From positions 3,038-67,037 of the forward strand of contig JAFQTN010000007.1 in the NCBI GenBank assembly GCA_017409025.1: a DNA stretch of 64,000 bases, given 5' to 3'. Shown in pieces: positions 4,328 through 62,508 of the stretch. A program made the translations under genes and the position numbers. The stretch is from Bacilli bacterium (GTDB lineage Bacteria; Bacillota_I; Bacilli_A; RF39; UBA660). Under the pieces are notes generated by a model, which saw only the letters and a program-made list of their open reading frames with translations, ran no database searches and had not been told where the DNA came from. Every line of letters starts with the position of its first letter. The first letter of the stretch is position 1.

Positions 4328-4368
4328 AAAGTAAATCATAAAGTTTTTACGAATAATACTATTGAAGG
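4328..4368 (+). promoter_or_regulatory. cin-box/SigH-ComX-like promoter motif, copy 1
   Basis: AAAGTAAAT-N11-TACGAATAATACTATTGAAGG; nearly the same motif at 40120 and 62488. Confidence 0.65.
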
Positions 4369-4379
4369 GAGTGAATGAG

Positions 4380-5270
4380 ATGAATTATTATGAAGAGATA
4401 AAAAGTAAATTAGTTAATAATGAGGTATATTCAAGAGTCAAAGATTATTCGAAAGAAAGACATAAGGTAATTACTTATTTTGAAATAGGTAGATTATTGG
4501 AAGAAGCTGGTGGAAAATATGGTGATAACATAATAGAAGAATATTCTAAAAAATTAATTGTCGAAGTTGGTAAAAAATATAATAGAAGAACATTGTTTAG
4601 AATGAAACAATTTTATAATATGTTTAGTAATCAAAAAGTGTCGACAATGTCGACACAATTATCATGGAGTCATTATACTGAACTTTTACCAATAAAAAAT
4701 ACAAATGAATTATTATATTACCTTACTTTGTGTATAAATCAAAATATTAATGTAAGAATTTTAAGAGAAAAGATAAAATCTAATGAGTATGAAAGATTAC
4801 TATGTAATACTAAAAACAAATTAATATTAGAACAGGAAGCAAATGTAGTAGATTTTGTTAAAAATCCAATTAAGATTAAAAATAATAAAAATTATGAAAT
4901 AGTAACTGAAAAAATATTACAAAAATTAATATTAGAGGATATACCTTCTTTTTTAGATGAATTAGGTAGTGATTTTACATTTGTTAAAAATGAATTTAAA
5001 ATTAAATTAGGTGATAGATATAATTATATTGATTTACTTTTATATAATATTAAATTTAAATGTTATGTGGTTGTTGAATTAAAAATATCAGAATTAAAGA
5101 AAGAACATATAGGACAAATTCAAACTTATATGAATTATATTGATAAAAATATTAAAACAATAGATGAAGATAGAACAGTTGGTTTAATTATTTGTAGGAA
5201 GAATAATGAATTTATTATTGAATATTGTTCAGATGATAGAATAATTTACAAAGAATATGAGTTGGTATAA
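4380..5270 (+). CDS. YhcG/DUF1016 family PD-(D/E)XK nuclease domain protein
   Basis: LSWSHY, FLDELGSDFTFV, YIDLLLY...VVVELK, GQIQTYMNY, GLIIC motifs; start ATG 4380. Confidence 0.9.
   Translation: MNYYEEIKSKLVNNEVYSRVKDYSKERHKVITYFEIGRLLEEAGGKYGDNIIEEYSKKLIVEVGKKYNRRTLFRMKQFYNMFSNQKVSTMSTQLSWSHYTELLPIKNTNELLYYLTLCINQNINVRILREKIKSNEYERLLCNTKNKLILEQEANVVDFVKNPIKIKNNKNYEIVTEKILQKLILEDIPSFLDELGSDFTFVKNEFKIKLGDRYNYIDLLLYNIKFKCYVVVELKISELKKEHIGQIQTYMNYIDKNIKTIDEDRTVGLIICRKNNEFIIEYCSDDRIIYKEYELV
4638..4656. repeat. In-gene palindrome GTGTCGACA-A-TGTCGACAC (codes VSTMST)
   Basis: Perfect 9-bp arms read directly. Confidence 0.9.
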
Positions 5271-5282
5271 AATAAAAAATCC

Positions 5283-5966
5283 CTAAAATAGAGTATAGGG
5301 ATATTTATTCGGTAATTCAATTTCAAATGTTAGTAATTCATTAGTTGTTGGATGATAAAAAGATAATTCTTTTGCTATTAGTGCAATGTTTGTTTTGTTA
5401 TCATTAATAAAATTTTTATTGTATTTATGATCTCCATATAGAGGATAACCGTTATGTGAAAACTGAACCCTTATTTGGTGGTGTCTTCCGGTTATTAGGT
5501 TTATTTTTACTAGGCTTAAATTATCTTTATAATCAATTAGTTTGTATTCTAATATAGATTTTTTTCCATTTGATTCACTTGTTACATAAGATGTATTTGT
5601 TTTTTCATCTTTTGTTAAGTAATTTATAAAACTTCCTTCGTTTTCAATTTTATTTTCTATGACAGCATAATATGTTTTTTTGAATTTATTATCAGTAATT
5701 TGTTTTGATAAACGAGAAGCAGCTTTACTAGTTTTTGCAAATACTAAAATTCCTTCTACGGGTCTATCTAATCTATGGATTAATCCTAGATAGACATTTC
5801 CTGGCTTATTATATTTAATTTTTAAATATTCTTTTAATTTTGATAGTAAGTCAATATCATTAGATGAATCTAAGCATACGGGCATATTGGCTGGTTTATT
5901 AACTACGAGTAAGTGATTATCTTCATATAAGATATTAATGTTTTGATACTTTTCCATAAATTCCAC
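5283..5966 (-). CDS. RluA-family RNA pseudouridine synthase
   Basis: VVNKPA, HRLDRPVEG, TGRHHQIRV motifs. Confidence 0.9.
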   Translation of the reverse strand: MEFMEKYQNINILYEDNHLLVVNKPANMPVCLDSSNDIDLLSKLKEYLKIKYNKPGNVYLGLIHRLDRPVEGILVFAKTSKAASRLSKQITDNKFKKTYYAVIENKIENEGSFINYLTKDEKTNTSYVTSESNGKKSILEYKLIDYKDNLSLVKINLITGRHHQIRVQFSHNGYPLYGDHKYNKNFINDNKTNIALIAKELSFYHPTTNELLTFEIELPNKYPYTLF

Positions 5967-6795
5967 AAGGTAAGGATAAATTGTTTTCAGTTACAGGTAA
6001 GCCAATTTCACCAGTTTCAATATTACTATTTTCAAAAGTTAAGGAAAGAATATTTTTTAGTGATGTAGGAGATACTCCTGTAGTATAGGCACTAATTAGT
6101 AAAAATGAATAATTTTCGTCTAGAACATCTTTAGCTTTATTTAGGAGTTCTTGAATGTTATCTTCAAAACGCCATACTTCTTTATTAGGTCCTCTTCCAT
6201 AACTAGGAGGATCCATTATAATTCCATGGTATGTTCTTCCTCTTCTTTTTTCTTTTTCTAGGAATTTTATGACATCATCTTGGATAAATCTAATGGTATT
6301 ATTTTCTAAGTGAGAAAGATGCATGTTTTCTTTAGCCCAATCAATCATTCCTTTAGATGAATCTAGGTGAACAACTTCTTTAGCTCCGGCACTAGAAGCT
6401 GCCATGGTAGCACAGCCTGTATATGCGAAAAGGTTTAGAACTCTAAAATCTTCGATATTAGAATTTTTAATTTTATCCATAATATAATCCCAATTTGTCG
6501 CTTGTTCTGGGAAGATACCAGTATGTTTAAAATTAGTAGGGCTAACTTTAAAAGTCAAATTTTTATAATTGATAGTCCAGTATTCAGGTAATTTTTTTCT
6601 AAATTCCCATGAACCACCACCAAGATTAGATCTGTGATAATATCCGTCCCATTTGTTCCAAATAGGATTATTGGATTTATCCCAGATAATTTGTGGGTCT
6701 GGTCTATTTAGAATAATGTTTCCCCAACGTTCTAATTTTTCTTTATTTCCAGTAGCAATACATTCATAGTCTATCCATTTATTACTAATATTCAT
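5935..6795 (-). CDS. Class I SAM-dependent methyltransferase (RlmI/RlmK-like)
   Basis: HTGIFPEQ, LNLFAYTG, MDPPSY motifs. Confidence 0.85.
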   Translation of the reverse strand: MNISNKWIDYECIATGNKEKLERWGNIILNRPDPQIIWDKSNNPIWNKWDGYYHRSNLGGGSWEFRKKLPEYWTINYKNLTFKVSPTNFKHTGIFPEQATNWDYIMDKIKNSNIEDFRVLNLFAYTGCATMAASSAGAKEVVHLDSSKGMIDWAKENMHLSHLENNTIRFIQDDVIKFLEKEKRRGRTYHGIIMDPPSYGRGPNKEVWRFEDNIQELLNKAKDVLDENYSFLLISAYTTGVSPTSLKNILSLTFENSNIETGEIGLPVTENNLSLPCGIYGKVSKH

Positions 6796-6911
6796 AATTA
6801 CCTCGTTTCTTTATTAATTTTAACTTAAAAGTATAAATTTGTCTAGTATGTGAAATAGTTTGAAAAAAAGATGTAAAAATGATATAATTTTTAATGACTG
6901 GGGGATATATT

Positions 6912-7571: not shown

Positions 7572-7572
7572 T

Positions 7573-8055
7573 ATGAATAGAAAAGGATTTACTTTAGTGG
7601 AGTTACTTGCTACGTTAGTAGTTTTAGGAATAGTAATGTCTATAGTTTTGGTTTCAGTAAATGGTGGTTTTGGTGAAGCAAAGAATAAAACTGAAGATGT
7701 TTTTATTGACACGATTAAGGATGCTATGGATATGTATTTGAACAGTGATGCTAAGGAATTAGATTTTGATACAACTTGTTCTAATTCTATTGATAAGACT
7801 TATGGTGAAGTAAAGGTATATAAGGCAAGTACTAATTTTCAGAATGTAATTAATTCTAAATATAAACCGATTACTCAGGATGATTTGGTGAATCCTGCAA
7901 ATAAAGATGTTGACTGTGTGGATGCTGTTAATATAATAGTCAATGTTTATAGGGATGAAGATTTTGTTTATTATTATAGTATTGATAAGAGTCGATTTGC
8001 TTGCTTAACTCAAACTGATAAGATAAGTAATTTACCTGAAGGATTTGATTGTTAA
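7573..8055 (+). CDS. Type IV pilin-like protein (prepilin N-terminal cleavage/methylation)
   Basis: MNRKG|FTLVELLATLVVLGIV class III signal; C-terminal cysteines. Confidence 0.85.
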   Translation: MNRKGFTLVELLATLVVLGIVMSIVLVSVNGGFGEAKNKTEDVFIDTIKDAMDMYLNSDAKELDFDTTCSNSIDKTYGEVKVYKASTNFQNVINSKYKPITQDDLVNPANKDVDCVDAVNIIVNVYRDEDFVYYYSIDKSRFACLTQTDKISNLPEGFDC

Positions 8056-8519
8056 TGCTAATATTATTTACAATAATATTTTTAGTTATTGATATAGTTA
8101 GTAAACTTTTAATCAGTAATTTAATGAACGTTGGACAAAGTATTCAAATTATTAATGATTTTTTCAATATTACATATGTAAGAAATACAGGTGCTGCCTG
8201 GAGTATTTTGTCAGGCGAGACTTGGTTACTTATAATAGTTAGTTTGATAATAATATCTTTGATTGTATTTTATATTTATAAAAATAGCCCTAAATCTGAC
8301 TTAGAAAAGATTAGTTATTCGATGATATTAGGTGGAGCGATAGGTAATTTACTAGATAGAATTATTTATGGTTATGTTGTAGATTTTTTAGATTTTAATG
8401 TATTTGGATATGATTACCCGATATTTAATTTAGCAGATAGTTTTATTCTTATTGGAGTAATACTTCTTGTTGTTTATACATGGAGGTGTAAAGATGGAAA
8501 TCAAAGTAATAGAAAATGA
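8055..8519 (+). CDS. lspA: Lipoprotein signal peptidase II
   Basis: NTGAAWS, GGAIGNLLDR, VVDF, FNLAD. Confidence 0.95.
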   Translation: MLILFTIIFLVIDIVSKLLISNLMNVGQSIQIINDFFNITYVRNTGAAWSILSGETWLLIIVSLIIISLIVFYIYKNSPKSDLEKISYSMILGGAIGNLLDRIIYGYVVDFLDFNVFGYDYPIFNLADSFILIGVILLVVYTWRCKDGNQSNRK

Positions 8520-9393
8520 TGGTATAAGATTAGATAAATATTTAATGGATAAACTAGAAATAAGTAGAAGTAAAGCACAGAAATTAATAGATAATGATAA
8601 TATATTAGTTAATGGTAATGTATCTAAAGCTAGTTATCTAGTTAAATTAGATGATAATATAGAAATATTATTATTGGATGATGAAGTTATCGATATAGAA
8701 GCAGAGAATATACCGTTAGATATAGTTTATGAAGATGATTATATGCTTGTTGTTAATAAACCTAGTGGAATGGTAGTTCATCCAGGAAATGGGAATTATA
8801 ATCATACTTTGGTTAATGCATTAATGTATCATTGTAATAAATTATCAACAGTTAATGGTGATATTAGACCAGGTATTGTTCATAGAATAGATGCAGATAC
8901 TTCAGGATTATTACTTGTTGCAAAAGATGATAATGCCCATAATGATTTAGCAAAACAAATAAGTGAGAAGAGTGTAGTTAGAAAATATTTGTGCTTAGTA
9001 CATGGTGTAATAAATGAAGATACTGCTACTGTGGATGCTCCAATAGGAAGAGATAAGAATAATAGAAAGAAAATGTGTGTTACTGGAGATAATTCTAAGG
9101 ATGCTGTTACTAATATAAGAGTATTAGAAAGATATAGTGATTCGACGTTAATTGAATGCATATTAGAGACAGGTAGAACACATCAGATAAGAGTTCATAT
9201 GGCTTATATTAATCATCCAGTTGTAAACGATCCTGTATATGGATATAATAAATTAGATGATAAGGAGTTTGGACAAATGTTACATGCTAAAGAGATTGGA
9301 TTTGTTCATCCTGTTACGAAAGAATTTATGGATTTTAAAATAGATCCACCATCTAAATTTTGGGAAATTTTGGAGATTTATAAAAATAAATAG
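8494..9393 (+). CDS. rluD: 23S rRNA pseudouridine synthase RluD (S4 domain)
   Basis: S4 domain RLDKYL, RPGIVHRIDADTSG, TGRTHQIRVH; follows lspA as in Bacilli. Confidence 0.85.
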   Translation: MEIKVIENDGIRLDKYLMDKLEISRSKAQKLIDNDNILVNGNVSKASYLVKLDDNIEILLLDDEVIDIEAENIPLDIVYEDDYMLVVNKPSGMVVHPGNGNYNHTLVNALMYHCNKLSTVNGDIRPGIVHRIDADTSGLLLVAKDDNAHNDLAKQISEKSVVRKYLCLVHGVINEDTATVDAPIGRDKNNRKKMCVTGDNSKDAVTNIRVLERYSDSTLIECILETGRTHQIRVHMAYINHPVVNDPVYGYNKLDDKEFGQMLHAKEIGFVHPVTKEFMDFKIDPPSKFWEILEIYKNK

Positions 9394-9438
9394 TTAATAA
9401 TTAGAAATTGAGATATAATAAAGTTACGAGGTGAATAT

Positions 9439-10572: not shown

Positions 10573-10589
10573 AAAAACATAACTGTTAA

Positions 10590-10982
10590 TTATGATACAG
10601 TTATGTTTTTTGATGTTTTTTTAGGAATGTCTTCTTTAGGAAATGATATTTGAAGAATACCTTCATGATGAGTTGCTTTAATATCGGTTTCTTTTTTTAT
10701 GCCAATATAGAAACTTCTTTTTATTTCTCCATAAAATCTTTCTCTTCTTATATAAGTGTTTGGATTAGAAGTGAGAGTATTTTTTGTTGCTTTAATAGTA
10801 AGATATCCATTTTCATAATTGATTTTAATATCTGTTTTCTTTATACCTGGTAAATCCATTTCAATAATATACTTGTTATTTGATTCATATATGTCAGTTC
10901 TCATGTATTCTTTTTCTTTGTTATATGGTGTATCAAATAAATCAAAATAATCGTTTAAATAATAATTTCTTTTTGGTAACAT
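10590..10982 (-). CDS. Small heat-shock protein (Hsp20)
   Basis: MRTDIYE, DLPG, RRERFYG, GILQI..PK. Confidence 0.9.
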   Translation of the reverse strand: MLPKRNYYLNDYFDLFDTPYNKEKEYMRTDIYESNNKYIIEMDLPGIKKTDIKINYENGYLTIKATKNTLTSNPNTYIRRERFYGEIKRSFYIGIKKETDIKATHHEGILQISFPKEDIPKKTSKNITVS

Positions 10983-12196: not shown

Positions 12197-12204
12197 GAGG
12201 TTTT

Positions 12205-13179: not shown

Positions 13180-13189
13180 GGAGAAAATT

Positions 13190-16317: not shown

Positions 16318-16926
16318 ATGATTTTTGACGAGTATTTTGATAGGGCATTATGGTTAATGTTACAAGGAAACAAAAAAAGTAGAGATATTTTAATTAATTT
16401 TGTTAATAGTTTAACAGATGAAATGTATGAGATTTTACGTAAAATATCAAAAGAATATTATTCAGATGCATCTATAGTTGCATCATATTATGAGCATTTT
16501 GGAAATAAATATGATTTATCAATAAAATATAAAAGTAATTATTTAACAATAGTATTAAAAAAGTATACAGACAGTAAAAAAGATAAATTAGATGAAAGTT
16601 ATGAAGTGTCATTATATTCAATTCTTAACAATTTTATAGGTAATAATAGTCCGTTAAAAAAAACAACGATAGGTTCTGTTGATTATAAAAAAAGTAAAGA
16701 AAAGAGTAATGTTGAGTCTTGTGGGAAAAAAACAACTTTTTTACGTACTAATTATGAATTTTCATATAATTTTAAACGTTGTTTATTAGAAACAAGGGAT
16801 CTTCTTGATTTTTGTTTATTTACTCCGAAAAGGGTTAATTTAGAACAAATGCCAAGTGATATTTATTCTTCATGTATTTTAAATGACAAGAATGAGAATA
16901 TTATGACTAAAAAGAGAAAAAAGTAA
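16318..16926 (+). CDS. Hypothetical protein, tandem paralog 1
   Basis: Shared N-terminus FDRALWLMLQGNKKSRDILINFVNSL. Confidence 0.7.
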   Translation: MIFDEYFDRALWLMLQGNKKSRDILINFVNSLTDEMYEILRKISKEYYSDASIVASYYEHFGNKYDLSIKYKSNYLTIVLKKYTDSKKDKLDESYEVSLYSILNNFIGNNSPLKKTTIGSVDYKKSKEKSNVESCGKKTTFLRTNYEFSYNFKRCLLETRDLLDFCLFTPKRVNLEQMPSDIYSSCILNDKNENIMTKKRKK

Positions 16927-16947
16927 AAAAATTAAGGATGGGAGTTT

Positions 16948-17541
16948 ATGGTATTTAATTTTGATTATGATAAGGCATTATGGATAATGCTACAAGGAGA
17001 TAAAATCAATAGAGAGGTTTTAATAAAATTTATCAATAGTTTAACTAATGATATGTATAAATGTATTCATGATTTAATATATAATGATTCTAGAAAATCA
17101 AATATAACTTGTCTTTTAGGTGATAATTTTACATTGTATGTTGAATTACATGATAAGGAGTTAACTATTAAATTAAATCAGTTTAATATATCAAAAGAAA
17201 GGGTAGAAGAATTTTTTTCCTTAACTTTGGTACCTTTAGAGAATACTGATAAATTATTAAAAAAGGATGAAAAAGAGTTATATATTGGAAATTTTAATTA
17301 TAAAACAAGACAACTATATCCAGTGGTAGATGAATTTGTTGAAATTAGAGAAAAAGAAAATGTTAATTATGTTTTAAAAAAGAAATTATTTGGATATAGT
17401 TTATTTATGGTATCACCGGGTAAAAATTGTGCATTAGAACAATCAATGGTAGATATAAAAAATATTCCTGATAAAATTTATCCTCATTATTTTACTAGTG
17501 AGTCAAGGCAAAGACGTCTTATAAGAAGAAGAAATAGATAA
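16948..17541 (+). CDS. Hypothetical protein, tandem paralog 2
   Basis: YDKALWIMLQGDKINREVLIKFINSL. Confidence 0.7.
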   Translation: MVFNFDYDKALWIMLQGDKINREVLIKFINSLTNDMYKCIHDLIYNDSRKSNITCLLGDNFTLYVELHDKELTIKLNQFNISKERVEEFFSLTLVPLENTDKLLKKDEKELYIGNFNYKTRQLYPVVDEFVEIREKENVNYVLKKKLFGYSLFMVSPGKNCALEQSMVDIKNIPDKIYPHYFTSESRQRRLIRRRNR

Positions 17542-17556
17542 CTTTTAGGTGAGGTA

Positions 17557-18147
17557 ATGGTATTAAGGGTAACTTATGATAAATCTTTATGGTTTATATT
17601 GAAAAATGATAAAAAAAATAGAAATAGAATATTGAGTTTTTTTAAAAACTTTCCTTCTAATTTATATCAACAATTATTAAATGAAATGCGTAATAGAAGA
17701 ATAATTAATGAATATAATGAAGAGGTTATTGATGGTATTTTATATTATTATGAGTTTAATCGTAGTGATGGTAGTATATGCATTGGTAATTGTTACAAGG
17801 ATAATTGTGAAGAAAATGACATATTTTTAATTAAATTATATCCTTTTAGAAGTGTTGATACAAATGGAAAAAATATTTCTCTTGGGAGTATAATTTATCA
17901 AAATAAAGAAGTGTATAGAGATTATATTTATGATTGTGGTAAACTGGAATATTGTTTAACTAAAAAATCAGACCGAGTATATTTTGTAACTTATAATGAA
18001 TATGGTGTTTTGGTAAAAAAAAGGAATAAAAAAGTTAATATTTTAGAGGTTCCTTCAACTGTTAATTTTGCATCTTTTGATAAAAAAAATAATCATGTTT
18101 TAAGAAGAAAAATAAATGGTACGGTTATACCACATAAACAATATTAA
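17557..18147 (+). CDS. Hypothetical protein, tandem paralog 3
   Basis: YDKSLWFILKNDKKNRNRILSFFKNF. Confidence 0.7.
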   Translation: MVLRVTYDKSLWFILKNDKKNRNRILSFFKNFPSNLYQQLLNEMRNRRIINEYNEEVIDGILYYYEFNRSDGSICIGNCYKDNCEENDIFLIKLYPFRSVDTNGKNISLGSIIYQNKEVYRDYIYDCGKLEYCLTKKSDRVYFVTYNEYGVLVKKRNKKVNILEVPSTVNFASFDKKNNHVLRRKINGTVIPHKQY

Positions 18148-39996: not shown

Positions 39997-40099
39997 AGAA
40001 AGAAACAATTTGTTAGGAATAACAAGTTGTTTTTTTGTTTGATAATTCGTTAAATAATAAAATTTGTTTGTCCAAAATATGTCAAATTAATAATTTTAA

Positions 40100-40140
40100 A
40101 AAGTAAATAAAAAACTTTGTACGAATAATGTTATTGAAGG
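40100..40140 (+). promoter_or_regulatory. cin-box/SigH-ComX-like promoter motif, copy 2
   Basis: AAAGTAAAT-N11-TACGAATAATGTTATTGAAGG. Confidence 0.65.
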
Positions 40141-40148
40141 AGGAATTA

Positions 40149-41015: not shown

Positions 41016-41024
41016 AAAATAATA

Positions 41025-41053
41025 TTGCTTAATTTAATAAAGAATGTTATAAT
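41025..41053 (+). promoter_or_regulatory. SigA promoter of glyS leader
   Basis: TTGCTT-N17-TATAAT with extended TG. Confidence 0.65.
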
Positions 41054-41069
41054 CTAGTTAACTTATTAA

Positions 41070-41190
41070 TTAATGCGAAGACGGGCTTGGAAACCTATCA
41101 GCAATATGTATATATAGAGGGATTCTTATGAATAAGTAAAGTGGAACCGCGGCATTAGTCGTCTTTACAATTAAAGAATTTCTCTTTTTA
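41070..41190 (+). promoter_or_regulatory. T-box riboswitch (Gly, short stem I)
   Basis: T-box AAAGTGGAACCGCG at 41138-41151 with complementary GTCTTTAC; weak terminator tcttta/taaaga plus U-rich tail; upstream of glyS. Confidence 0.75.
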
Positions 41191-41210
41191 TTATTTTGGA
41201 GGTAGTAGTT

Positions 41211-42038
41211 ATGAGTGTAAAAATTGAAGGAATAGAAAGACTTAGGGCTAATTATTATAATAAAATAGTAATTAATCAGGATCCTGCTTATGGGAATTAT
41301 AGTGTTTCAGTAAAAGGTAATCCAATTAAACATGATACGGAACGTGTTGGTGAAAGATTTGGAGAAAGTTTTAAAAATAAAAGTGATGATGAACAAATAA
41401 GAGAAATAATTGAAGATTATCTTAGATATACTAAAATATGTGGATATACAGATTTAATACGTTTACCTGGTTATGGAGAAAAAAGATTTAATGTAGTATA
41501 TGGCAATTTTGGTTATAGGGAAATGTTACTTCGTTTGTTTAAATTTAATAAAGATTTTGGTGATATTTTAGGAAAAATACAACAGAAATATTATCAAGAT
41601 AGATTTGATTTTTGTTATGAAGAAAAAGGGATAAAAACATTTAAAATAAGTGCTGATGCAACTGGTACTGGTTATACTTTAGATTTAGATAAATTATATA
41701 GTGGTGCTAAAGAAGAAGAATATTTTAAACATATAATATTAATGGAAAAAGATTTTAGATTAACTGATTGTGAAAAAAAATTCATAGATGATTTTATAAT
41801 AAATATTTTTTCTAAATTTGGTGAAAAAATAGAAATCGAAAAAGTATATAATAGTGAATATGAATGGGCAAGAAGTAAAGTTACTGGATATATATTTAAA
41901 TGTGGTGATGTAAAAGTATATATTGATAATTGTTATCCATTATTGCATATTCTTGTAACAGTTGGTAATTATAATTTAAGTTTAGAAGCAAAAAAAGAAA
42001 ATAGTATGAAAAGACAATTGGCTATGGAGGGATTTTAA
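41211..42038 (+). CDS. Hypothetical protein
   Basis: GGAGG RBS, ATG 41211; coupled to glyS. Confidence 0.7.
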
Positions 42039-51840: not shown

Positions 51841-53436
51841 ATGAGGAGAAAATATGATATAAGGAATAAGAAAAATTTTATTATAATTTTAGTGTTATCA
51901 ATTATTATAGTTACTATTTTCTCCTTATTTATCTATAAATATAGTAAGGCATCTAAAATAGAATATATAATTGAATCTGGAAGTGTATTACAAGATGTTG
52001 ATAAAAATTATCTTTCTATAGATGATGATGCTATATTAAAAATAAGATGGAATGGTAGTTATTATTTAGTTTATAATGATGAAAATATTAATTTAGGTAA
52101 GAAGGTAATTATATATAATACAATTACTGGTGGTATGAATTTATATGGTACTTTTTACGAAATAGGTAGTGATGGTAAAATTATTGAGAATAAGGAAGAG
52201 ACAGTTTTAGCTAATACTACCAATGCTAAATTTTATAAATTAGATGATAGAGAATATTTAGTAGTTGATAGGACAATATCTAGTGATGATAAATCTATAG
52301 AAGCTAGTAATTATATTTTAGTGGAATTAGATAAAGCAGGTAATGCTAAATTATCTAATAATAAGATTAATTTAAAGACTATTACTCCTACTAAATTAAT
52401 TACTTCTAAATATACTTTTGATATTGCTAATGAAATACTTAATTTTGGAAAATATGATATAGATTTAAAGAAAATTATTGGAACTACTAATCAGTATAAA
52501 CCAGAAGATGATGAGAATGGAACTGATAGCGGTACAGGTGATGGTATCGGATCAGGAACGGGTAGTGGTTCAGACGGAGGAAGTGGAACAGATACCGGAA
52601 CTGGAAATGGATCGGGAGATGGTGCTGGCTCTGGAACGGGGAGCGGCAATAATATCGGAACAGGTAGTGGTACTGGATCAGGAACTGGTACAGGTTCTGG
52701 TAATGGAATAGGCAGTGGTGAATCTACTGGACCTGGAGATATTATCAATAATGGTGATGTTGGAAATATTCCTGATATGGATGATATTTTAGATAAGATT
52801 AAGATGACGTCTATAATTAGGGTAGTTGAAGGACTTACTCAAATCGATGTTGATTATGTTATATATGATCCTTATAATGAATATAAATCTGTTTATGTAG
52901 AAGTTATTAAACCTGGAGAAGTGGAGATAGTACATTTATCTAAGACTGATACTCATGTCACTATTGATTCACTTAATGCTAATACTGATTATAGACTTAA
53001 TTTTATATATACTACGGTAAAAAAAGATGTTGAAACTGAAGTTGAAGAATTGATTCCTTATACATTTGAACAATTTGATTTAAGAACTAAGATGCCAGAA
53101 TATTCTATATCAATTTATAAATTATCTAAAGTAACAAATATACTTACTTATAAAGTTAATTTACAAAGTGGATATAGTATATCTTCTCTTAATGTTAATT
53201 TATCGTTTGATTATAATGAACTTGATGTCGAGTCTGGAAATATGATACAAAAGAAAGCATCTTTAGATGGGACTGTTTCTGTAAATAGTGGAAGTAGTTA
53301 TGTTTTAGGTAATTTTGATATATCTGGTTATGAATTTGATGCTGATACAGTACTTAAGTTAACTGTTAAGAATGTTACTAAAGGCGATATAGTACTTCCT
53401 GTTAATGCAACATATTCCTTTAGATTTGGGAGGTAG
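51841..53436 (+). CDS. Membrane-anchored surface protein with GS/GT linker and FN3-like domain; N-domain similar to the giant protein
   Basis: N-terminal TM; KLDDREYLVV vs RISDDKYIVV; LNANTDY motif. Confidence 0.7.
   Translation: MRRKYDIRNKKNFIIILVLSIIIVTIFSLFIYKYSKASKIEYIIESGSVLQDVDKNYLSIDDDAILKIRWNGSYYLVYNDENINLGKKVIIYNTITGGMNLYGTFYEIGSDGKIIENKEETVLANTTNAKFYKLDDREYLVVDRTISSDDKSIEASNYILVELDKAGNAKLSNNKINLKTITPTKLITSKYTFDIANEILNFGKYDIDLKKIIGTTNQYKPEDDENGTDSGTGDGIGSGTGSGSDGGSGTDTGTGNGSGDGAGSGTGSGNNIGTGSGTGSGTGTGSGNGIGSGESTGPGDIINNGDVGNIPDMDDILDKIKMTSIIRVVEGLTQIDVDYVIYDPYNEYKSVYVEVIKPGEVEIVHLSKTDTHVTIDSLNANTDYRLNFIYTTVKKDVETEVEELIPYTFEQFDLRTKMPEYSISIYKLSKVTNILTYKVNLQSGYSISSLNVNLSFDYNELDVESGNMIQKKASLDGTVSVNSGSSYVLGNFDISGYEFDADTVLKLTVKNVTKGDIVLPVNATYSFRFGR
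52519..52737 (+). repeat. Low-complexity (GS/GT)n coding repeat
   Basis: Encodes GTDSGTGDGIGSGTGSGS... linker. Confidence 0.85.
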
Positions 53437-54173
53437 TGATGAAAAAAATTATTGAGTTTTGTAAGGAAAAATATAAAATATTGATACCTTTTATGGTGGG
53501 GATAGTACTTCTTGTAACTTTAGTTTTCTTATATAAAGAGTATAGATATGAAAATACTAAAAATAAAAAAGAAATTAGTGTATATCAATATTTTGGTGGT
53601 ATTAGAACTGAATATACTGCTATAGTCACTTATAATCTAAAGGATATTCTTGTTGGTATTGAGGCTAAGGATAAAAAAATTGAATATGATTCTAAGCCTG
53701 TATATTATAAGGATGAGGATAAAGTAATATTTCCTAATGAGATGACTGCTATTTTTCCTTTAAATAATGGGTTGCAATATAAAATCTATAAATATGCTAC
53801 TTATTATAAGGAAAATGATTTACATTATATTAAGAATAGTAGTGATATTGGAAATTATAGTTATTTCTTCTTATATGATGGAAAAGATGTATTTTTCTTT
53901 CCGGATGAAGTAACACTTAATATTAATAATAAAAAATATAAAGATTTAGGTGCAATGTCTTATGTTACTTTAGTTGGAGGTACTACATTAATTTATTATG
54001 ATACATCTACAGATACATCTGAAGTAATTGAAACTGATAATGATATAGTAACTGTTACTAGTAATAATGTCAATGTAAATATTAGTGAACGATACTTTTT
54101 ATCTTTTGGTAAAAATGTATTATTATTTAGTCCTAATAATTTAAATCCGTTATCCAAAATGATTGACAAATAA
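53436..54173 (+). CDS. Membrane-anchored beta-rich hypothetical protein
   Basis: N-terminal TM; translationally coupled to upstream gene. Confidence 0.65.
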   Translation: MMKKIIEFCKEKYKILIPFMVGIVLLVTLVFLYKEYRYENTKNKKEISVYQYFGGIRTEYTAIVTYNLKDILVGIEAKDKKIEYDSKPVYYKDEDKVIFPNEMTAIFPLNNGLQYKIYKYATYYKENDLHYIKNSSDIGNYSYFFLYDGKDVFFFPDEVTLNINNKKYKDLGAMSYVTLVGGTTLIYYDTSTDTSEVIETDNDIVTVTSNNVNVNISERYFLSFGKNVLLFSPNNLNPLSKMIDK

Positions 54174-54192
54174 TTATAGCAAATGTTATAAT
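54163..54192 (+). promoter_or_regulatory. Consensus SigA promoter for ATPase-like cluster
   Basis: TTGACA-N18-TATAAT with extended TG. Confidence 0.7.
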
Positions 54193-54199
54193 GAAATAA

Positions 54200-54478
<279 letters not shown>

Positions 54479-54479
54479 G

Positions 54480-55244
54480 ATGATTGCTTTATTTGCATTT
54501 GTTTGTTTAATTGTTGCCTTTCTTATTTTCTTAATGTTTCTTATTCTTAGAAAGACTGTAAGGATCGTCAATGAACAAACAAAATCTTACTTTGTAAATA
54601 AGTTACAGGGTTATGACGATTTAATTTCTGAGAGAGAAAACAAACTATTAGAAATTGATGAATTAATTAAGAATAGAGAAATAGGGAAAAAGGAAAATAA
54701 AAAGGAACTTTCTAAGGGTGGTTATGCGTTTGATACTAATGTTATTGATTTGTTTAATTCTACACAGTATCAAGATAAAAATATATTTGAACTAAATAGA
54801 AAAATAGATGAAAATTTTGTAGTTAATTATGAAGAATTAGTTAAAGATTTTTTAACATTTTGTGATGATTCTAAAGATTATAGTTTTTGTTTAAATTTAA
54901 GAAATAAATTTAATAGTGATGAGATATATAGACTTAAAACTTTAATGAATTCAGAATTTGAGGATGAATTAAAAGTATTTTTAACTAGTAAGGAATATAA
55001 AGTATATGAAGCTTTTAAGTTAATTATTAATGAACATACTATTGAGAATTTTGTAATGTATTTAGATCAACTTGTAGATTTGAATAGTCCAATGGTAACT
55101 ATTTTGGTTGGTAGTAAGAATGAAAATTATGATCATTTAAGTGAATATATTGAAACTAAATACAACGATAGAATTTATAGAGGACTAAAAATTATATATA
55201 AAAATAGAGTATATGATTTTAGTTTAAGTGAAAGGAATATATGA
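54480..55244 (+). CDS. Peripheral-stalk-like b-delta fusion protein
   Basis: N-terminal TM and coiled coil; C-terminal IYRGLKIIYKNRVYDFSL resembles delta C-terminus (GGxxIxxGDxVxDxS); lies between c and alpha. Confidence 0.6.
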   Translation: MIALFAFVCLIVAFLIFLMFLILRKTVRIVNEQTKSYFVNKLQGYDDLISERENKLLEIDELIKNREIGKKENKKELSKGGYAFDTNVIDLFNSTQYQDKNIFELNRKIDENFVVNYEELVKDFLTFCDDSKDYSFCLNLRNKFNSDEIYRLKTLMNSEFEDELKVFLTSKEYKVYEAFKLIINEHTIENFVMYLDQLVDLNSPMVTILVGSKNENYDHLSEYIETKYNDRIYRGLKIIYKNRVYDFSLSERNI

Positions 55245-55245
55245 G

Positions 55246-58206
<2,961 letters not shown>

Positions 58207-58207
58207 T

Positions 58208-58744
58208 ATGGATGCAAATGTGATTTTAGAAAATATTATTAATTTCTTATTTGTTGCCTTAATATTTCTTGGAGTATTAGCTGTAACATTTAAGATAACT
58301 CTTAAAAATTATAATGTTAAAACTGGTAAATTAAAATTTTATGGATTATTTTTAGGAATGGATAATAAATCAATACTTGCATTTGGATCAATTACTTTGA
58401 ATTATATTTTCTTGATTTGGTGTACTGCTACATTTTCTGGTATGAATATCTTTTATATATTAATTACAACGATTTTTGTAGTACTATCTGATATTTTAAT
58501 TAAAGATTATAGACGTATACCAATAGATTTATTATTTACTTTAATAAATTGTGTATGTATGTTTGTTATAAGTTTAATTTATGATTATTTAGTTAATGAA
58601 TATACGACAATATTTTTACTTATAGTACTTGGATTAGTTATTATATTTGTATTTTTATATTTTACATATATTACATTTAAGTGGCTAAACAATATAGTAC
58701 TTAAACAGGAGCATTTACAAAAAAAGAATTATAAAAAACTATAA
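58208..58744 (+). CDS. ~5-TM membrane protein within ATPase-like cluster
   Basis: Five hydrophobic segments; no subunit-a RLxxN motif. Confidence 0.65.
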   Translation: MDANVILENIINFLFVALIFLGVLAVTFKITLKNYNVKTGKLKFYGLFLGMDNKSILAFGSITLNYIFLIWCTATFSGMNIFYILITTIFVVLSDILIKDYRRIPIDLLFTLINCVCMFVISLIYDYLVNEYTTIFLLIVLGLVIIFVFLYFTYITFKWLNNIVLKQEHLQKKNYKKL

Positions 58745-58760
58745 AAGGGGAAGTGAAATA

Positions 58761-59525
58761 ATGAAAATTAAAAACGTTGTTAAAGTTATGAACTTCCAAG
58801 CTCTTCTTAGAATGGATAAATCATTAAAAGAAGCGGATAAATATAGAAATGTTGGTAAAGAAGTTACTGATATATTAAGTAGGATTATGTATAATAAAAA
58901 CTTAATATTAGATAAGAAAATATTATTTCCAGAAGCTACTTTACCTGAACTTAATATATATATAGCTAATGATTATGGTTTTTGTGGGAATTTTAATTCT
59001 GGTATTAGTAAATGTATAAGAAATGATAAAGATGCTTACAAAATTATTATTGGTAAGAAAATAATTTATACTGATGATAAGGTATTGTTAAAAATAGATA
59101 AAGAGGATTTCTTAAAAAGATTTACTGAAATTGAAAATTGTATAGATAAGGCAGTAAAGTCGATGAATTATAGTAGAATTAATGTTTATTATAATCATTA
59201 TTATTCACTTACTTCATTTGAACTTTTAAAAATACAGTTATTTCCTGTTGAGTTTAAAGGAGAATATTATGAAGGTGAAGATTTTGTTGCTGAGACTAAT
59301 TTAAATAATATACTTGGTAGTTTGATGACATTTTATATATGTTATCAACTTAAGATGTGTGAGAGTATATCTTATGCAGCAGAGAATGTTTTAAGAACAC
59401 AAATTACTTCTTCGGCGTTAGAAAAAATTGAAGAAAAAGAAGAAGAACAAAAACATGAAGAAGCAAAGTTAAAAAAGGAAAAGAGTGTCTTGAAGAGTGT
59501 TGAAAACTTTAAAAAGATTGCTTAG
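58761..59525 (+). CDS. atpG: F1-like ATPase gamma subunit (divergent)
   Basis: KIKNVVKVM N-helix, ANDYGFCGNFNS (cf. SDRGLCGxFN), YNHY, SYAAEN..R C-helix. Confidence 0.8.
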   Translation: MKIKNVVKVMNFQALLRMDKSLKEADKYRNVGKEVTDILSRIMYNKNLILDKKILFPEATLPELNIYIANDYGFCGNFNSGISKCIRNDKDAYKIIIGKKIIYTDDKVLLKIDKEDFLKRFTEIENCIDKAVKSMNYSRINVYYNHYYSLTSFELLKIQLFPVEFKGEYYEGEDFVAETNLNNILGSLMTFYICYQLKMCESISYAAENVLRTQITSSALEKIEEKEEEQKHEEAKLKKEKSVLKSVENFKKIA

Positions 59526-59542
59526 ATATAGAGGTGATTATA

Positions 59543-61456
59543 ATGATAAGACAAAGTTTAGAATTTGATGATATATTAGAGAAGAAGTTTAAAATACTTA
59601 GAACTAGTATAATGTTAGGTAATTTAAGAAATAGGGAAGATACTTTAAGAGAGTATGAAGATACTGCTAGAGAGATAGATAAGATTAGAAAAAATGTTTA
59701 TGAAGAACTTTTAGCTAGTAAGTTATATACTACAATAACTTTAGAAGAAGAAGAAACTAGACTTAAAGATTTAATTACTTTTATTGAAAATAGAATACAA
59801 GAAAGAAATGACTTTGTAGACGATTATATTAAAATTACCTCAAACTTTTTAGATGGGCTTGATAAAGTTTCTTTAGAAAATGAATTAGATAATTATAAGA
59901 ATAGATATAGTAATATAGAAGAATATTTGAAAAATTGTGAACAAATAGAGTCTCTTAATAATAGGTTAAAAGAGTTAAGAGATGGACTTGAGGAAAAGTA
60001 TGAAAACAAAGCTAATAATGAAATAGTTAATTCTAAATTAGAAGAAGAATTAATTGATGAATTTAATAAATATATATCTAATTATGAATATTATTCAGAA
60101 TTAAATTATACGGATATAGATTTAGAACTTACTAAGATTGAAGAATCGTTGTTAGAAAAGAAGAGTGTATTAGATACATTTTTATCTTCATATCAAGCAT
60201 TAGTTAATGCTGGTATATCTGGTGCAGAGAGAGAAGAATATGCATCTTATGTATCTGAAGCTAGAGTTAATTATTATGAAGATTTAGAAAAGAAATATAT
60301 TTTAAATATATATAAACTAGTACTTGATAAACAAACAGATTATGAAAGATTATATGATAAGAGAAGTAGAATTGATTCTATATTAAACGAAAGAGAAGAA
60401 ATGAGAAATTCTCTTGATATAAGTAGAAGAGACGATTTTAAATATTTTGTTACTTTATGTAATGAACAATTTAGTATTATTAAATCTCAAAAATTTAATA
60501 TGGAAAGTATTGATAAATTAATATTAGAAATTTCTGAATGTGAAAATAAATTAACTGAATTAATGGAAACTAATAATAGAACTGAAATACAAGATATATT
60601 AACTGAATTTTCTGTTGATGCTCCGGAAATTGAAAAAATAGAATTACCAGATGAAAAAGAAGTTTATGAAGAGGTAATTAAAGACTTAGAAAAGAAACCA
60701 GATAATATGGTTGTTAGAATAAGGGATCCAATTAAGATAAATGTTAAGGGTGTTACTGATACTGCTAAATTAGTAATGAAGAAAGTAGTTATTGTGTTAG
60801 AACCTAAGAAATTTAATCAAAAAAGAAATAAATTAAAAGAAGCTGAATTAGAACTAGAAGAAGAGAAGAAAAATATAGAAGAGTCTATATTAGAAGATAA
60901 TTTAGTTACTGAGAAAGTTAATGAAAATATAGATAATCAAATAGATTCAGTAGAAGAAATTGATAAAGAAGAAATAGATACTGAAAATTTATTTGAGGAT
61001 GAGATAAAGATAGATACTAGTGGTAATACTGAAGATATATTCTTAGATGATGGTATTGGAATTGAACTTGATACTAAAGAAGTATTTGATAATGATGTAA
61101 CTGAGACTAAGGAGTTAACTGAAATTAAGATAAATGCTGATGATATATCAAATATGACTATTCCTACGGAGATATATGTAGAAGAACCACCTGTAGAACC
61201 AGAACCTGACTTATTTACAGTTACTGATCCATTCTTGGATGATAATGAATTTGAGGTGGCTCACGATAAAGTAAGTGAAGGTATTAAAGCTAATATGCCA
61301 ACTCTTGGTAATATTGGTACGGTTAGACCTACGAATGTATTATCTAAAATAGAGGATGTTGTTAGAAATAATGATGATATAATTCTTCCTAATTTAGGGC
61401 TAGTTGACAATACAAAACAAGAGGTTCCAATAGTTAGTGAGAATTATATAAATTAG
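59543..61456 (+). CDS. Long coiled-coil protein with very acidic disordered C-terminus
   Basis: E/K/L heptads over ~450 aa, D/E/P-rich tail; last gene of ATPase-like operon. Confidence 0.65.
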   Translation: MIRQSLEFDDILEKKFKILRTSIMLGNLRNREDTLREYEDTAREIDKIRKNVYEELLASKLYTTITLEEEETRLKDLITFIENRIQERNDFVDDYIKITSNFLDGLDKVSLENELDNYKNRYSNIEEYLKNCEQIESLNNRLKELRDGLEEKYENKANNEIVNSKLEEELIDEFNKYISNYEYYSELNYTDIDLELTKIEESLLEKKSVLDTFLSSYQALVNAGISGAEREEYASYVSEARVNYYEDLEKKYILNIYKLVLDKQTDYERLYDKRSRIDSILNEREEMRNSLDISRRDDFKYFVTLCNEQFSIIKSQKFNMESIDKLILEISECENKLTELMETNNRTEIQDILTEFSVDAPEIEKIELPDEKEVYEEVIKDLEKKPDNMVVRIRDPIKINVKGVTDTAKLVMKKVVIVLEPKKFNQKRNKLKEAELELEEEKKNIEESILEDNLVTEKVNENIDNQIDSVEEIDKEEIDTENLFEDEIKIDTSGNTEDIFLDDGIGIELDTKEVFDNDVTETKELTEIKINADDISNMTIPTEIYVEEPPVEPEPDLFTVTDPFLDDNEFEVAHDKVSEGIKANMPTLGNIGTVRPTNVLSKIEDVVRNNDDIILPNLGLVDNTKQEVPIVSENYIN

Positions 61457-61549
61457 ATATAAAAAATAATAAAAAAATGTGTTAATTAGTATTGCAAATT
61501 TTATAAAAATTTGCTACTATTAATATAGTAAAGGAGGAAATAAAAAATT

Positions 61550-62341
61550 ATGGAAAATAATGGAAGAGGAATTTTTTATGGAGTTATAGGTGTTGCAACT
61601 TTAGTTGTAGCAATAATTGGTGCTACATTCGCATACTTCTCAGCAAGTGCTGGTGGAAACGAAACAGTTACTGCTGGTGGTGCTACAATCGACTTAAAAT
61701 GGAGTGAAGATGTAACATTAATTCAAGATAACTTAGTACCAGTTGAAACTGGATTTGTTGATGAAAATCAAGAAGAAGGAAAACTTCAAAATACTGCTGC
61801 ACAATTTGCTACTTATGCAAATTTAGACCCTACTAAAGCAGCTACTACTTGGTGTCAAGATAAAGATGGTGTATACAATGTTTGTAGTGCATATAGCATT
61901 ACAATTACTAATGAAGGTACTGCTCCAATCACACTTGATGGAAGTTTTACTACTGTAAGTAATAGTGTAGAACATTTAAAATTTGCAATTTTTAGAGGAA
62001 CTGCTACAAATGTATTTTCTACTGCTAGTGTAGAAGGTGGCGAAATTGGTTGGGATGTTAATGCTGCTAAAGGACAAGCTGCAACTTCATATTTTGCTTC
62101 TGGAGTAGCGGATGGAGCTTTATTAGTAAGTGCTACAGATATAGCTTCAGGTGAAAATACTGTTGGTACTAAGTTGGATCTTACACTTGGAGCTGCAGGT
62201 TCTGGTACTGAAACAGCGACATTTACAATTCTTCTATGGATTGAAGAAATTGGTACTACTCAAAAATCAGGTGGAGATTTCATTGGTAAAGTAAACTTCA
62301 CTACTGCTGATGGAACTGGTATTACTGGTTTAATAGCTTAA
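61550..62341 (+). CDS. TasA/camelysin-like secreted protein with SipW-class signal peptide (candidate major fibre subunit)
   Basis: IIGATFAYFSA signal; own promoter (TTGCAA...TACTAT), AAGGAGG RBS and terminator; C-ending codons suggest high expression. Confidence 0.7.
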   Translation: MENNGRGIFYGVIGVATLVVAIIGATFAYFSASAGGNETVTAGGATIDLKWSEDVTLIQDNLVPVETGFVDENQEEGKLQNTAAQFATYANLDPTKAATTWCQDKDGVYNVCSAYSITITNEGTAPITLDGSFTTVSNSVEHLKFAIFRGTATNVFSTASVEGGEIGWDVNAAKGQAATSYFASGVADGALLVSATDIASGENTVGTKLDLTLGAAGSGTETATFTILLWIEEIGTTQKSGGDFIGKVNFTTADGTGITGLIA

Positions 62342-62384
62342 TAATTCTATAAAAAAATAATATAAAAAATAAATTCCAAAATTC

Positions 62385-62420
62385 AAACAAGATAAGAAAT
62401 TATCTTGTTTTTCCTTTTTT
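62385..62420 (+). terminator. Intrinsic terminator
   Basis: aaacaagataa-gaaa-ttatcttgttt followed by T run. Confidence 0.75.
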
Positions 62421-62466
62421 TATTTTGTATTAAAAATAATAATTCTTGGTAATATTTTATTAATTA

Positions 62467-62508
62467 AAAGTAATTATAATTTGATTTTACGAATAATACT
62501 ATTGAAGG
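62467..62508 (+). promoter_or_regulatory. cin-box/SigH-ComX-like promoter motif, copy 3
   Basis: AAAGTAATT...TACGAATAATACTATTGAAGG, core 21 nt identical to 4348-4368. Confidence 0.65.

Follow-up and report, generated by a model that had tools for sequence, protein, structure and literature searches.

The 64,000-nt window, that is, the whole stretch of DNA analysed, contains three loci at which the same short module lies directly upstream of an accessory gene (Table 1). The product of the first gene (P0001) matched the Pfam profiles YhcG_C (3e-33) and DUF1016_N (3.8e-26) and the PADLOC profile PDC-S02 (2.6e-65). The product of the second (P0002) matched Pfam Bro-N at its N-terminus (3e-11), PADLOC PDC-S13 over residues 9-277 (6.5e-113) and phrog_15286 (5.5e-105), which is annotated as function unknown. 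PADLOC lists both families, YhcG/DUF1016 (PDC-S02) and Bro-N (PDC-S13), as candidate defence genes. A close relationship of P0002 to E. coli DinD was rejected, with 22% identity over 59 aa. The Rfam check of the modules and palindromes gave one notable match at E up to 1, a T-box leader at 41019-41169, outside the module.

At the third locus, the module is followed by a pseudogene fragment that comprises only the N-terminal part of a YhcG gene and carries an in-frame TAG at 62655-62657. Homology between copies 1 and 3 starts at the -35-like block of the module and stops at 62798. The protein encoded by the intact second YhcG gene is 32% identical to P0001, and radC starts 30 nt past this gene, ~1.4 kb past copy 3. 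A scan of 62200-64000 found terminator-like sites on the minus strand only, leaving none on the plus strand between module 3 and radC. Judged from the sequence, the module 3 unit very probably extends into radC, and the first-pass annotation was right to place radC downstream of this copy, with the second YhcG gene in between.

Table 1. Positions of the modules, genes, hairpins and palindromes at the three loci (window coordinates).
Feature	Position	Strand	Details
Terminator-like hairpin + U-run after Smr-domain gene	4280-4303	+	-9.4 kcal/mol, z -2.74
Module 1	4328-4379	+	AAAGTAAAT 4328-4336; 11-nt spacer ending TTTT; TACGAATA 4348-4355; 21-mer 4348-4368; RBS GAAGGGAG; TTTT-0-box-24-ATG
YhcG/DUF1016 PD-(D/E)xK nuclease gene (P0001, 296 aa)	4380-5270	+	domain profile matches
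43-nt run identical to 62580-62622	4443-4485	-	P = 0.002 for such a run length
In-frame palindrome, copy 1	4638-4656		9-nt arms, 1-nt centre; -12 kcal/mol, z -3.8
Strong terminator hairpin + U-run after helD	39999-40036	+	-18.5 kcal/mol, z -6.1
Module 2	40100-40148	+	AAAGTAAAT 40100-40108; 11-nt spacer; TACGAATA 40120-40127; 21-mer 40120-40140; RBS GAAGGAGG; TTT-1-box-21-ATG
Gene for Bro-N domain protein P0002 (288 aa)	40149-41015	+	domain profile matches
In-frame palindrome, copy 2	40339-40363		11-nt arms, 3-nt centre; -14.8 kcal/mol, z -4.6
Terminator hairpin + U-run after 61550-62341 gene	62385-62410	+	-10.5 kcal/mol, z -4.3
Module 3	62467-62516	+	AAAGTAATT 62467-62475; 12-nt spacer; TACGAATA 62488-62495; 21-mer 62488-62508; RBS GAAGGAG; TTT-0-box-21-ATG
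Truncated copy-1-type YhcG remnant	62517-62810	+	80.5% identity to 4380-4661
Palindrome of copy 3 remnant	62775-62793		sequence
Perfect 13/13 palindrome	62809-62834		20 nt upstream of second YhcG gene start
Intact second YhcG/DUF1016 gene (332 aa)	62855-63853	+	YhcG_C 3.4e-54, DUF1016_N 2.8e-41
radC 5' end	63884-64000	+	UPF0758_N 1.8e-12

The search of both strands of the window for TACGAATAATNNTATTGAAGG with up to 2 mismatches returned three matches, each with 0 mismatches; the chance expectation was 0, and none of 100 dinucleotide-preserving shuffles contained a match. At the two variable positions, copies 1 and 3 have AC and copy 2 has GT, and the RBS, GAAGG(A/G)G, lies directly 3' of the 21-mer in all three. 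This recovered exactly the 21-nt repeat of the first-pass annotation, described there as occurring three times with AAAGTAAWT 11-12 nt upstream and followed by an RBS. Between the box and the RBS, all but two positions are invariant in the three copies. The box TACGAATA alone was found 7 times in the window (2.39 expected; 7 reached in 3 of 100 shuffles), and the four occurrences away from the modules (25386, 26157, 30555 and 56220) all lie within ORFs according to the ORF table. All five occurrences of CGAATAAT on both strands of the window are at the three module loci. Since a terminator-like hairpin with a U-run precedes each copy and an RBS and ATG directly follow, the 21-mer is read as the core of a compact promoter-plus-RBS module of 50 nt, with the ATG 21-24 nt past the box.

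A housekeeping sigma-A promoter was taken to have a TTGACA-like and a TATAAT-like hexamer separated by 16-18 nt and, in many cases, a TG extension. No qualifying promoter was found next to the three module gene starts, at which neither a TTGACA-like -35 nor a TG extension was detected. The best upstream scores were 7.5 for copy 1, 9 for copy 2 (102 nt from the start) and 8 for copy 3 (158 nt from the start). The score of copy 1 is the second lowest among the surveyed intergenic upstream regions, with only uvrB (7) lower; 7.5 and 8 fall at the low end of the surveyed range and 9 is common in it. Textbook sigma-A promoters elsewhere in the window reached 12/12 with an extended TG (46011 and 54230) and 11/12 (6894). 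Given the lack of qualifying hexamers at the three starts against 11-12/12 at other units, the module was rejected as a housekeeping sigma-A promoter.

Of the promoter types known, the best fit would be one read by an alternative sigma factor of the ComX/SigX-SigH family of Firmicutes. In order, the module has the -35-like block AAAGTAAWT, 11-12 nt of spacer with a T-run at its end and the -10 box TACGAATA(AT), and then a brief conserved region around the putative start site that leads into the RBS GAAGGAG and the ATG. The module would thereby start three units, namely the solitary YhcG/DUF1016 nuclease gene, the solitary Bro-N gene, and the decayed YhcG gene with the second YhcG gene and very probably radC, and the three would be induced together. 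Overall, that a non-sigma-A promoter module of the ComX/SigX-SigH type heads these three transcription units is a call we regard as evenly balanced.

In copies 1 and 3 the 21-mer is identical at 21/21 positions, as against 227/282 in the adjoining coding DNA and 65/94 at third codon positions, which puts P at 0.0105 (0.0004 if the rate at third positions is used) and indicates constraint on the module. The spacer has diverged between these two copies and differs in length by 1 nt, as expected of a promoter. Modules 1 and 3 would be common by descent, because promoter and gene appear to have been duplicated together. Copies 1 and 2 share a sharply bounded block of 41 nt in unrelated flanks, including the start-site region and the RBS, and 19/21 positions of the 21-mer are identical. 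This likeness points to block copying and not to independent recruitment to a regulon; copy 2 would have brought this module to an unrelated gene, the simplest route being a promoter-block transfer.

The repeat might instead mark where a mobile cassette ends, as a recombination or attachment sequence rather than a promoter, since it occurs only at the 5' edge of apparently horizontally acquired genes between housekeeping genes and the homology of copies 1 and 3 starts at the -35-like block. However, the block is non-palindromic, a search 3' of the three loci gave only A/T-rich 8-11-mers, with neither a repeat partner in direct or inverted orientation nor a 3' flank in common, and no recombinase gene adjoins. 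Moreover, the RBS is correctly spaced from the ATG in all three copies and the spacer varies in a promoter-like manner. We therefore regard a cassette end as very improbable. A motif absent from competence genes and confined to duplicated cassette ends had been named beforehand as the finding that would speak against a competence link; a weak form of this applies, in that the motif precedes only accessory genes in the window, but no cassette-end repeats were found.

Read on its minus strand, the 43-nt run shared by copies 1 and 3 closely resembles the module (AAGTAATT, 15 nt, TTCGAATAAT) and is directed towards the sense promoter, with CGAATAAT at 4444-4451 in copy 1. This may constitute a putative antisense promoter in both copies; the scan of both strands of the window for CGAATAAT found no such element in copy 2. 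If transcribed, it could yield an antisense RNA covering the leader. Together with the near-invariance of the box-to-RBS stretch, this would agree with a stretch acting mainly as an RNA leader for a common translational regulator or sRNA, possibly in addition to any promoter. Transcription starting 6-8 nt past the box would, however, leave ~15-18 nt with little room for structure, copy 2 is without the antisense element, and Rfam gave 0 matches at the gathering threshold in the whole window and, with the cut-off relaxed to E = 1, none over the modules. Such a leader is considered improbable, though it would be compatible with a promoter.

The genes behind the modules also carry palindromes. 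A palindrome-bearing gene behind each copy, as claimed in the first-pass annotation, was found at all three loci, the gene of copy 3 being a truncated fragment. The palindrome of copy 1 scores as a hairpin with a T-run on the minus strand. The copy 3 remnant breaks off 5 nt after its own palindrome and is continued by a different YhcG allele, the second YhcG gene, in which no in-frame palindrome of at least 7 nt was found at the family position. In-frame palindromes are kept across phyla in both the YhcG and Bro-N families and also occur in relatives without this promoter, indicating that the promoter does not explain them. The palindromes are old family features independent of the module. They pose a separate puzzle, probably a more unusual one than the module itself.

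Whether the state inducing the three units is competence was considered next to the genes at hand. No comE, comF, comG, dprA, ssb, coiA, cinA or recA gene was found within the 64-kb window, and no sigma-factor domain among the 65 window ORFs scanned. The sole pilin-like gene (7573-8055) has a canonical sigma-A promoter upstream and no TACGAATA box. The pattern AAAGTAAWT-N11/12-TACGAATAAT gave 45 single matches in genome_contigs, in 45 different records, none with a module-like continuation; three matches in low-GC Firmicute or 'Mycoplasma' MAGs were examined, and none lies before a competence gene. Competence-type regulons comprise about 15-20 promoters per genome, and three copies in 64 kb, all before accessory genes, would be more than such a regulon is expected to place there by chance. 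Competence as the inducing state is proposed tentatively, with somewhat less than even confidence.

A different reading is that the module is a private promoter block travelling or copied among accessory defence-type genes, used by sigma-A with an activator, another sigma factor or a stress regulator, with a coincidental cin-box likeness and no role in competence. All three copies precede PADLOC candidate defence genes, the block of copies 1 and 2 spans the start-site region and RBS within sharp bounds, and no motif-bearing competence gene was found in the window or at the three genome_contigs matches examined. In addition, CGAATAAT contains AATAAT, which agrees with the sigma-A -10 hexamer at 5/6 positions, and the conserved ATNNTATTG past the box is weakly dyad-symmetric and may act as an operator. 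Against this reading, the three starts have neither a TTGACA-like -35 nor a TG extension, and downstream of copy 3 is radC, a conserved member of the competence regulon. Furthermore, the 8/8 match to TACGAATA, the T-run beside it and the ATG 21-24 nt on reproduce the layout published for SigX. The claim of a cin-box inside the repeat, made before this analysis, accordingly stands, the box being exact in 3/3 copies. The probability of an exact box 17-25 nt before any of the ~27 window gene starts is ~0.005, a rough value before any look-elsewhere correction that was built on the TACGAATA shuffle rate and the upstream regions of the sigma-A survey. A private promoter is rated as rather unlikely.

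Extending the competence reading, solitary defence-type nuclease and DNA-binding genes may have been drawn into a ComX-like regulon of an uncultured low-GC Firmicute lineage as promoter-plus-gene units, with the palindromes as exchange or regulation sites and the genes acting on, or spreading via, transformation DNA. This would fit the break of copy 3 at 5 nt past its palindrome, the antisense module of copies 1 and 3 and the position of radC under the module; we consider it a long shot. If the ComX/SigH-type reading is true, the module would be sequence evidence that an uncultured Bacillota lineage, so far represented by MAGs alone, has a competence-like regulon. It would also bring YhcG/DUF1016 and the PDC-S13 type of Bro-N, both widespread and uncharacterised candidate defence families, under DNA-uptake control, extend the paratox precedent of accessory genes listening in on competence, and provide a search handle for the remaining regulon, namely TACGAATA, 21 nt and ATG. 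A private promoter copied among accessory genes would merely be ordinary promoter sharing.

Relatives of the two families lie in defence loci elsewhere, between hsdM and hsdS of type I R-M systems on Cetobacterium somerae and Clostridium estertheticum plasmids and between cas4 and cas1 of a CRISPR-cas operon in Arcobacter cloacae. The window genes belong to the same protein families as these embedded candidates (PDC-S02 and PDC-S13), but they are solitary between housekeeping genes and each has its own promoter of the special type.

The sigma-H consensus of the Listeria/Bacillus type is RMAGGRWWW, N11-12, RRMGAAW (PMC4754846). Like the sigma-H competence promoters of Listeria, Staphylococcus and Latilactobacillus sakei, the module has two blocks, an 11-12-nt spacer and GAAT in the -10; unlike the consensus, its -35 reads T where AGG has its second G, and its -10 reads T in place of the first purine. 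The modules agree with the consensus at 14/16 positions. The sigma-H resemblance noted earlier held for layout and positions but did not discriminate, since the window has 155 matching sites when up to 2 mismatches are allowed, compared with 89.9 on average over 30 Markov simulations, the consensus being loose in an A-rich genome. Searches of PMC3364868 and PMC3486894 by term gave no promoter sequences.

The likeness to SigX/ComX cin-box promoters extends to details (PMC6328492 and the available part of PMC6001120): TACGAATA is exact and at the -10, a T-run precedes it by 0-1 nt, the ATG follows after 21-24 nt, a sigma-A -35 is missing and radC is in the operon downstream of one copy. Table 4 of PMC6001120, within the part available, gives the streptococcal boxes as a T-run, 0-10 nt, TACGAATA and mostly 17-25 nt to the ATG, as in coiA (TTTTT-0-box-22-ATG) and dprA (box-21-ATG); the same part counts radC among the SigX core genes, with 167- and 298-fold induction in S. 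mitis. Unlike these promoters, the module has an extra conserved -35-like block, AAAGTAAWT, and unlike their hosts, the window organism (~25% G+C) is not a streptococcus, its closest relatives with a name being 'Firmicutes/Bacillota bacterium' MAGs.

For accessory genes with a cin-box near the ATG, paratox (prx) appears to be the nearest precedent, going by the available part of PMC6224593. There, 6 of 68 cin-boxes of S. pyogenes MGAS315 lie no more than 21 nt from the ATG of the prophage gene prx, and these are XIP-induced with transcription running into host genes. The window genes differ from paratox in that they encode a nuclease and a Bro-N protein instead of a small ComR inhibitor and have no prophage around them. 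As with paratox at streptococcal prophage ends, so far as that source extends, a perfect cin-box lies within ~21 nt of the ATG of a multicopy accessory gene, and copy 3 probably reads into radC much as prx transcription reads into host genes.

The first-pass annotation had described a promoter-like sequence recurring before three genes, and this repeat proved real. A window scan tolerating up to 2 mismatches returned three matches to the 21-mer TACGAATAATNNTATTGAAGG, all on the (+) strand (at 4348, 40120 and 62488) and all without a mismatch, and none of 100 dinucleotide-preserving shuffles contained any match. The -35-like block precedes the 21-mer as AAAGTAAAT at 11 nt in copies 1 and 2 and as AAAGTAATT at 12 nt in copy 3, and the ribosome-binding site GAAGG(A/G)G follows directly 3' in all three copies. 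The -10 box within the 21-mer, TACGAATA, lies 24, 21 and 21 nt from the ATG in copies 1, 2 and 3, respectively. This box alone occurs 7 times in the window versus 2.39 expected. By the ORF table, the 4 occurrences outside the modules fall within ORFs, as do all 12 weaker two-block copies (2-3 mismatches), none of them at a promoter position. All five window occurrences of CGAATAAT, both strands counted, are at the three module loci, and intergenic CGAAT is found at six sites, namely the three modules on the (+) strand and 29080, 40045 and 62584 on the (-) strand.

Features of the three module loci in window coordinates
Locus	Feature	Position	Details
Copy 1	Terminator-type hairpin + U-run before module	4280-4303	z -2.7
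Copy 1	Module (+)	4328-4379	
Copy 1	YhcG/DUF1016 PD-(D/E)xK nuclease gene	4380-5270	296 aa; neighbours Smr / rluA-like
Copy 1	In-frame palindrome	4638-4656	
Copy 2	Terminator-type hairpin + U-run before module	39999-40036	-18.5 kcal/mol, z -6.1
Copy 2	Module (+)	40100-40148	
Copy 2	Bro-N protein gene	40149-41015	288 aa; neighbours helD / T-box-led glyS operon
Copy 2	In-frame palindrome	40339-40363	
Copy 3	Terminator-type hairpin + U-run before module	62385-62410	z -4.3
Copy 3	Module (+)	62467-62516	Locus neighbours camelysin-like gene / radC
Copy 3	Fragment of copy-1-type YhcG gene	62517-62810	In-frame TAG; homologous with copy 1 as far as 62798
Copy 3	In-frame palindrome	62775-62793	
Copy 3	Intact second YhcG gene, downstream of fragment	62855-63853	32% identical to copy-1 YhcG
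Copy 3	radC		30 nt after second YhcG gene

The repeat is a non-sigma-A promoter-plus-RBS module. A hairpin with a U-run closes the gene upstream of each copy, so each copy heads a new transcription unit. Consensus scans found no sigma-A promoter adjoining the three gene starts. The best scores in the module regions were 7.5 (copy 1), 9 at 102 nt (copy 2) and 8 at 158 nt (copy 3); in the survey of upstream regions, 7.5 and 8 are at the bottom of the range and 9 is common to many other regions. Canonical sigma-A promoters occur elsewhere, scoring 12/12 with an extended TG in front of 46011 and 54230 and 11/12 in front of 6894. The 21-mers of copies 1 and 3 agree at 21/21 positions, as compared with 227/282 in the adjoining coding DNA and 65/94 at third positions (P = 0.0105; with the third-position rate, P = 0.0004), and the spacer separating the two blocks has changed in sequence and, by 1 base, in length. 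A conserved 21-mer with a diverged spacer is what a two-block promoter would be expected to show. Rfam gave no match over the modules or the palindromes.

Copies 1 and 3 arose by duplication of promoter and gene together; they are homologous from the -35-like block to a point 282 nt inside the gene. Copy 2 has only a 41-nt block in common with copy 1 (19/21 within the 21-mer), with unrelated flanks and gene. Because this block reaches through the start-site region and RBS, it suggests copying rather than independent evolution. That the repeat might be the end of a duplicated cassette, and thus a mobility or attachment sequence, was not borne out: neither direct or inverted repeats flanking the three loci nor a common 3' end was found, which argues against such a reading. 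Compared by blastn with plasmids and phages, 4320-4490 had no more than short matches attributable to chance (E >= 0.003), and the copy-2 locus, compared with phages, had a single weak coding match.

The copy 3 locus (62517-62855) has the appearance of a gene replacement. A copy-1-type YhcG gene is represented by its promoter and initial 94 codons, the homology stops 5 nt after the palindrome, and a second perfect palindrome and then a complete YhcG gene (32% identical) follow. Separately, 4443-4485 and 62580-62622 agree without a single difference over 43 nt, in coding DNA whose overall identity is 80.5% (P = 0.002). On the (-) strand these 43 nt contain an element closely resembling the module (AAGTAATT, 15 nt, TTCGAATAAT), which faces the sense promoter about 95 nt off. 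This element is possibly an antisense promoter of the module's class.

The genes under the module belong to candidate defence families of PADLOC, with PDC-S02 for the YhcG genes (E 2.6e-65 and 5.4e-125) and PDC-S13 for the Bro-N gene (E 6.5e-113). PHROGs assigned no function, and a PDB sequence search returned no relatives. In the literature covered, papers on YhcG with defence and on PDC-S02 came down to defence-system surveys. Plasmid relatives are located between hsdM and hsdS, and the module genes stand solitary among housekeeping genes in the window. On Arcobacter cloacae pACLO, a type I-B CRISPR-cas operon has a Bro-N/PDC-S13 homolog inserted between its cas4 and cas1 genes.

Several other features were recorded in the window. 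Four nt after the Bro-N stop begins a T-box leader (41019-41169; full-length model match, E 3.7e-6, 36.5 bits, under the gathering score of 93), followed by an unknown 280-aa ORF (41196-42038; no usable match in the ESM Atlas) and a glycine-tRNA ligase gene. Relatives of GlyRS at 80-91% identity come from Firmicutes or Bacillota MAGs. The cluster at 51841-61456, which departs from the standard atp operon layout, has one ATP-synthase c-subunit-like, two alpha/beta-like and one gamma-like gene amid ORFs without family match, and adjoins a 1937-aa protein with a fibronectin type III match. At 16318-18147, three ORFs in a row (196-202 aa) are without Pfam or NCBIfam match, and the 263-aa protein at 61550-62341 has a weakly camelysin/TasA-type N-terminus (Peptidase_M73, E 0.0014, below cut-off).

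The promoter had also been tied to genes carrying an in-frame palindrome. This association stands for the three loci of the window and did not extend to the 9 relatives inspected, none of which has the module in the upstream 90-100 nt. Perfect palindromes (arms of at least 7 nt, centre of at most 5 nt, at the homologous codon position) are present in 8/13 YhcG/DUF1016 relatives, including several in E. coli K-12 yhcG, and in 5/7 Bro-N (PDC-S13) relatives from Campylobacterota, Bacteroidota and Alphaproteobacteria. The genes that bear them have hardly any palindromes elsewhere; the stems vary by paired changes and the centre is mostly CA-N(1-5)-TG. The palindromes proved to be old family traits, independent of the module promoter. 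No mention of them was found in titles, abstract openings and some passages of the DUF1016 literature.

The fixed codon position of the palindromes recurs in two unrelated families and across phyla. E. coli K-12 yhcG (7828-8955 of its locus) has an insert at the same DUF1016_N position with three in-frame palindromes of a common CAGAC...GTCTG core, one with 15-nt arms, each encoding Q-T-x-S-A/G; the window palindrome at 62809-62834 has the same core. The second YhcG gene of the window is without an in-frame palindrome, and in its place a perfect 13/13 one lies 20 nt upstream of the gene start; the copy 3 break is 5 nt past its own palindrome. Upstream palindromes as remnants of older YhcG genes were unsupported in Butyrivibrio, where the upstream ORF has no DUF1016_N match, and in Fusobacterium, where it is Fic-like by eye. 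Four or five A's precede the palindrome on the coding strand in copies 1 and 3, Fusobacterium, Butyrivibrio and one further locus (L063), which on the antisense strand makes a hairpin plus T-run; the palindromes of copies 1 and 3 were scored as (-) intrinsic terminators. For RNA- versus DNA-level selection, palindrome extension was counted over 15 rows, with the mis-registered copy 1 row left out, giving G-T on the coding strand in 0, A-C in 4 and neither in 11.

That competence induces the three units together is plausible, if somewhat doubtful. Since no (+) terminator was found between module 3 and radC, radC is probably co-transcribed from this module; in streptococci radC belongs to the SigX core, and in S. 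mitis its induction reaches 167- and 298-fold (PMC6001120). In S. pyogenes MGAS315, 6 of 68 TACGAATA boxes stand no more than 21 nt from the start codon of the prophage gene prx (PMC6224593), and these prx cin-boxes (late-competence promoter boxes) are XIP-induced, with transcription reading into host genes. This precedent shows that accessory genes can bear real cin-boxes in several copies. Within the 64-kb window, neither operons for DNA uptake or recombination nor sigma-factor genes are present, the sole pilin-like gene has a sigma-A promoter, and nothing relevant joining DUF1016 with competence was found in the literature covered. The scan of a genome-contig collection for AAAGTAAWT-N11/12-TACGAATAAT gave 45 unrelated single matches in 45 records, none module-like and none from this genome; three that were inspected (L022, L025 and L034) were dismissed as chance. 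The main rival, a private promoter copied among accessory genes with a merely coincidental cin-box likeness, is considered rather unlikely.

The module most likely belongs to the ComX/SigH promoter class, an assignment made with even confidence. The proposed sigma-H resemblance holds formally, with 14/16 consensus positions (PMC4754846) and the right spacer, but does not discriminate: at up to 2 mismatches, 155 sites match in this A-rich window versus a mean of 89.9 in 30 Markov simulations, so the likeness carries no weight and the consensus was dropped as a discriminator. A by-eye comparison with the consensus sequences of other Firmicute sigma factors gave a poorer fit; sigma-D, ECF and sporulation sigma factors were unfit in spacing or core bases. 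A LexA/SOS reading was also rejected, as no Cheo-type box was seen in the module or upstream of uvrB. The streptococcal SigX/ComX promoter, as described in PMC6328492 and PMC6001120, carries TACGAATA as its -10 box and a T-rich tract ahead of it. Table 4 of the latter gives TTTTT-0-TACGAATA-22-ATG for coiA and TTTTTT-0-TACGAATA-21-ATG for dprA, with box-to-ATG distances of mostly 17-25 nt among core late genes. The window modules, written likewise, read TTTT-0-box-24-ATG, TTT-1-box-21-ATG and TTT-0-box-21-ATG, which is a good match to the published SigX/ComX layout.
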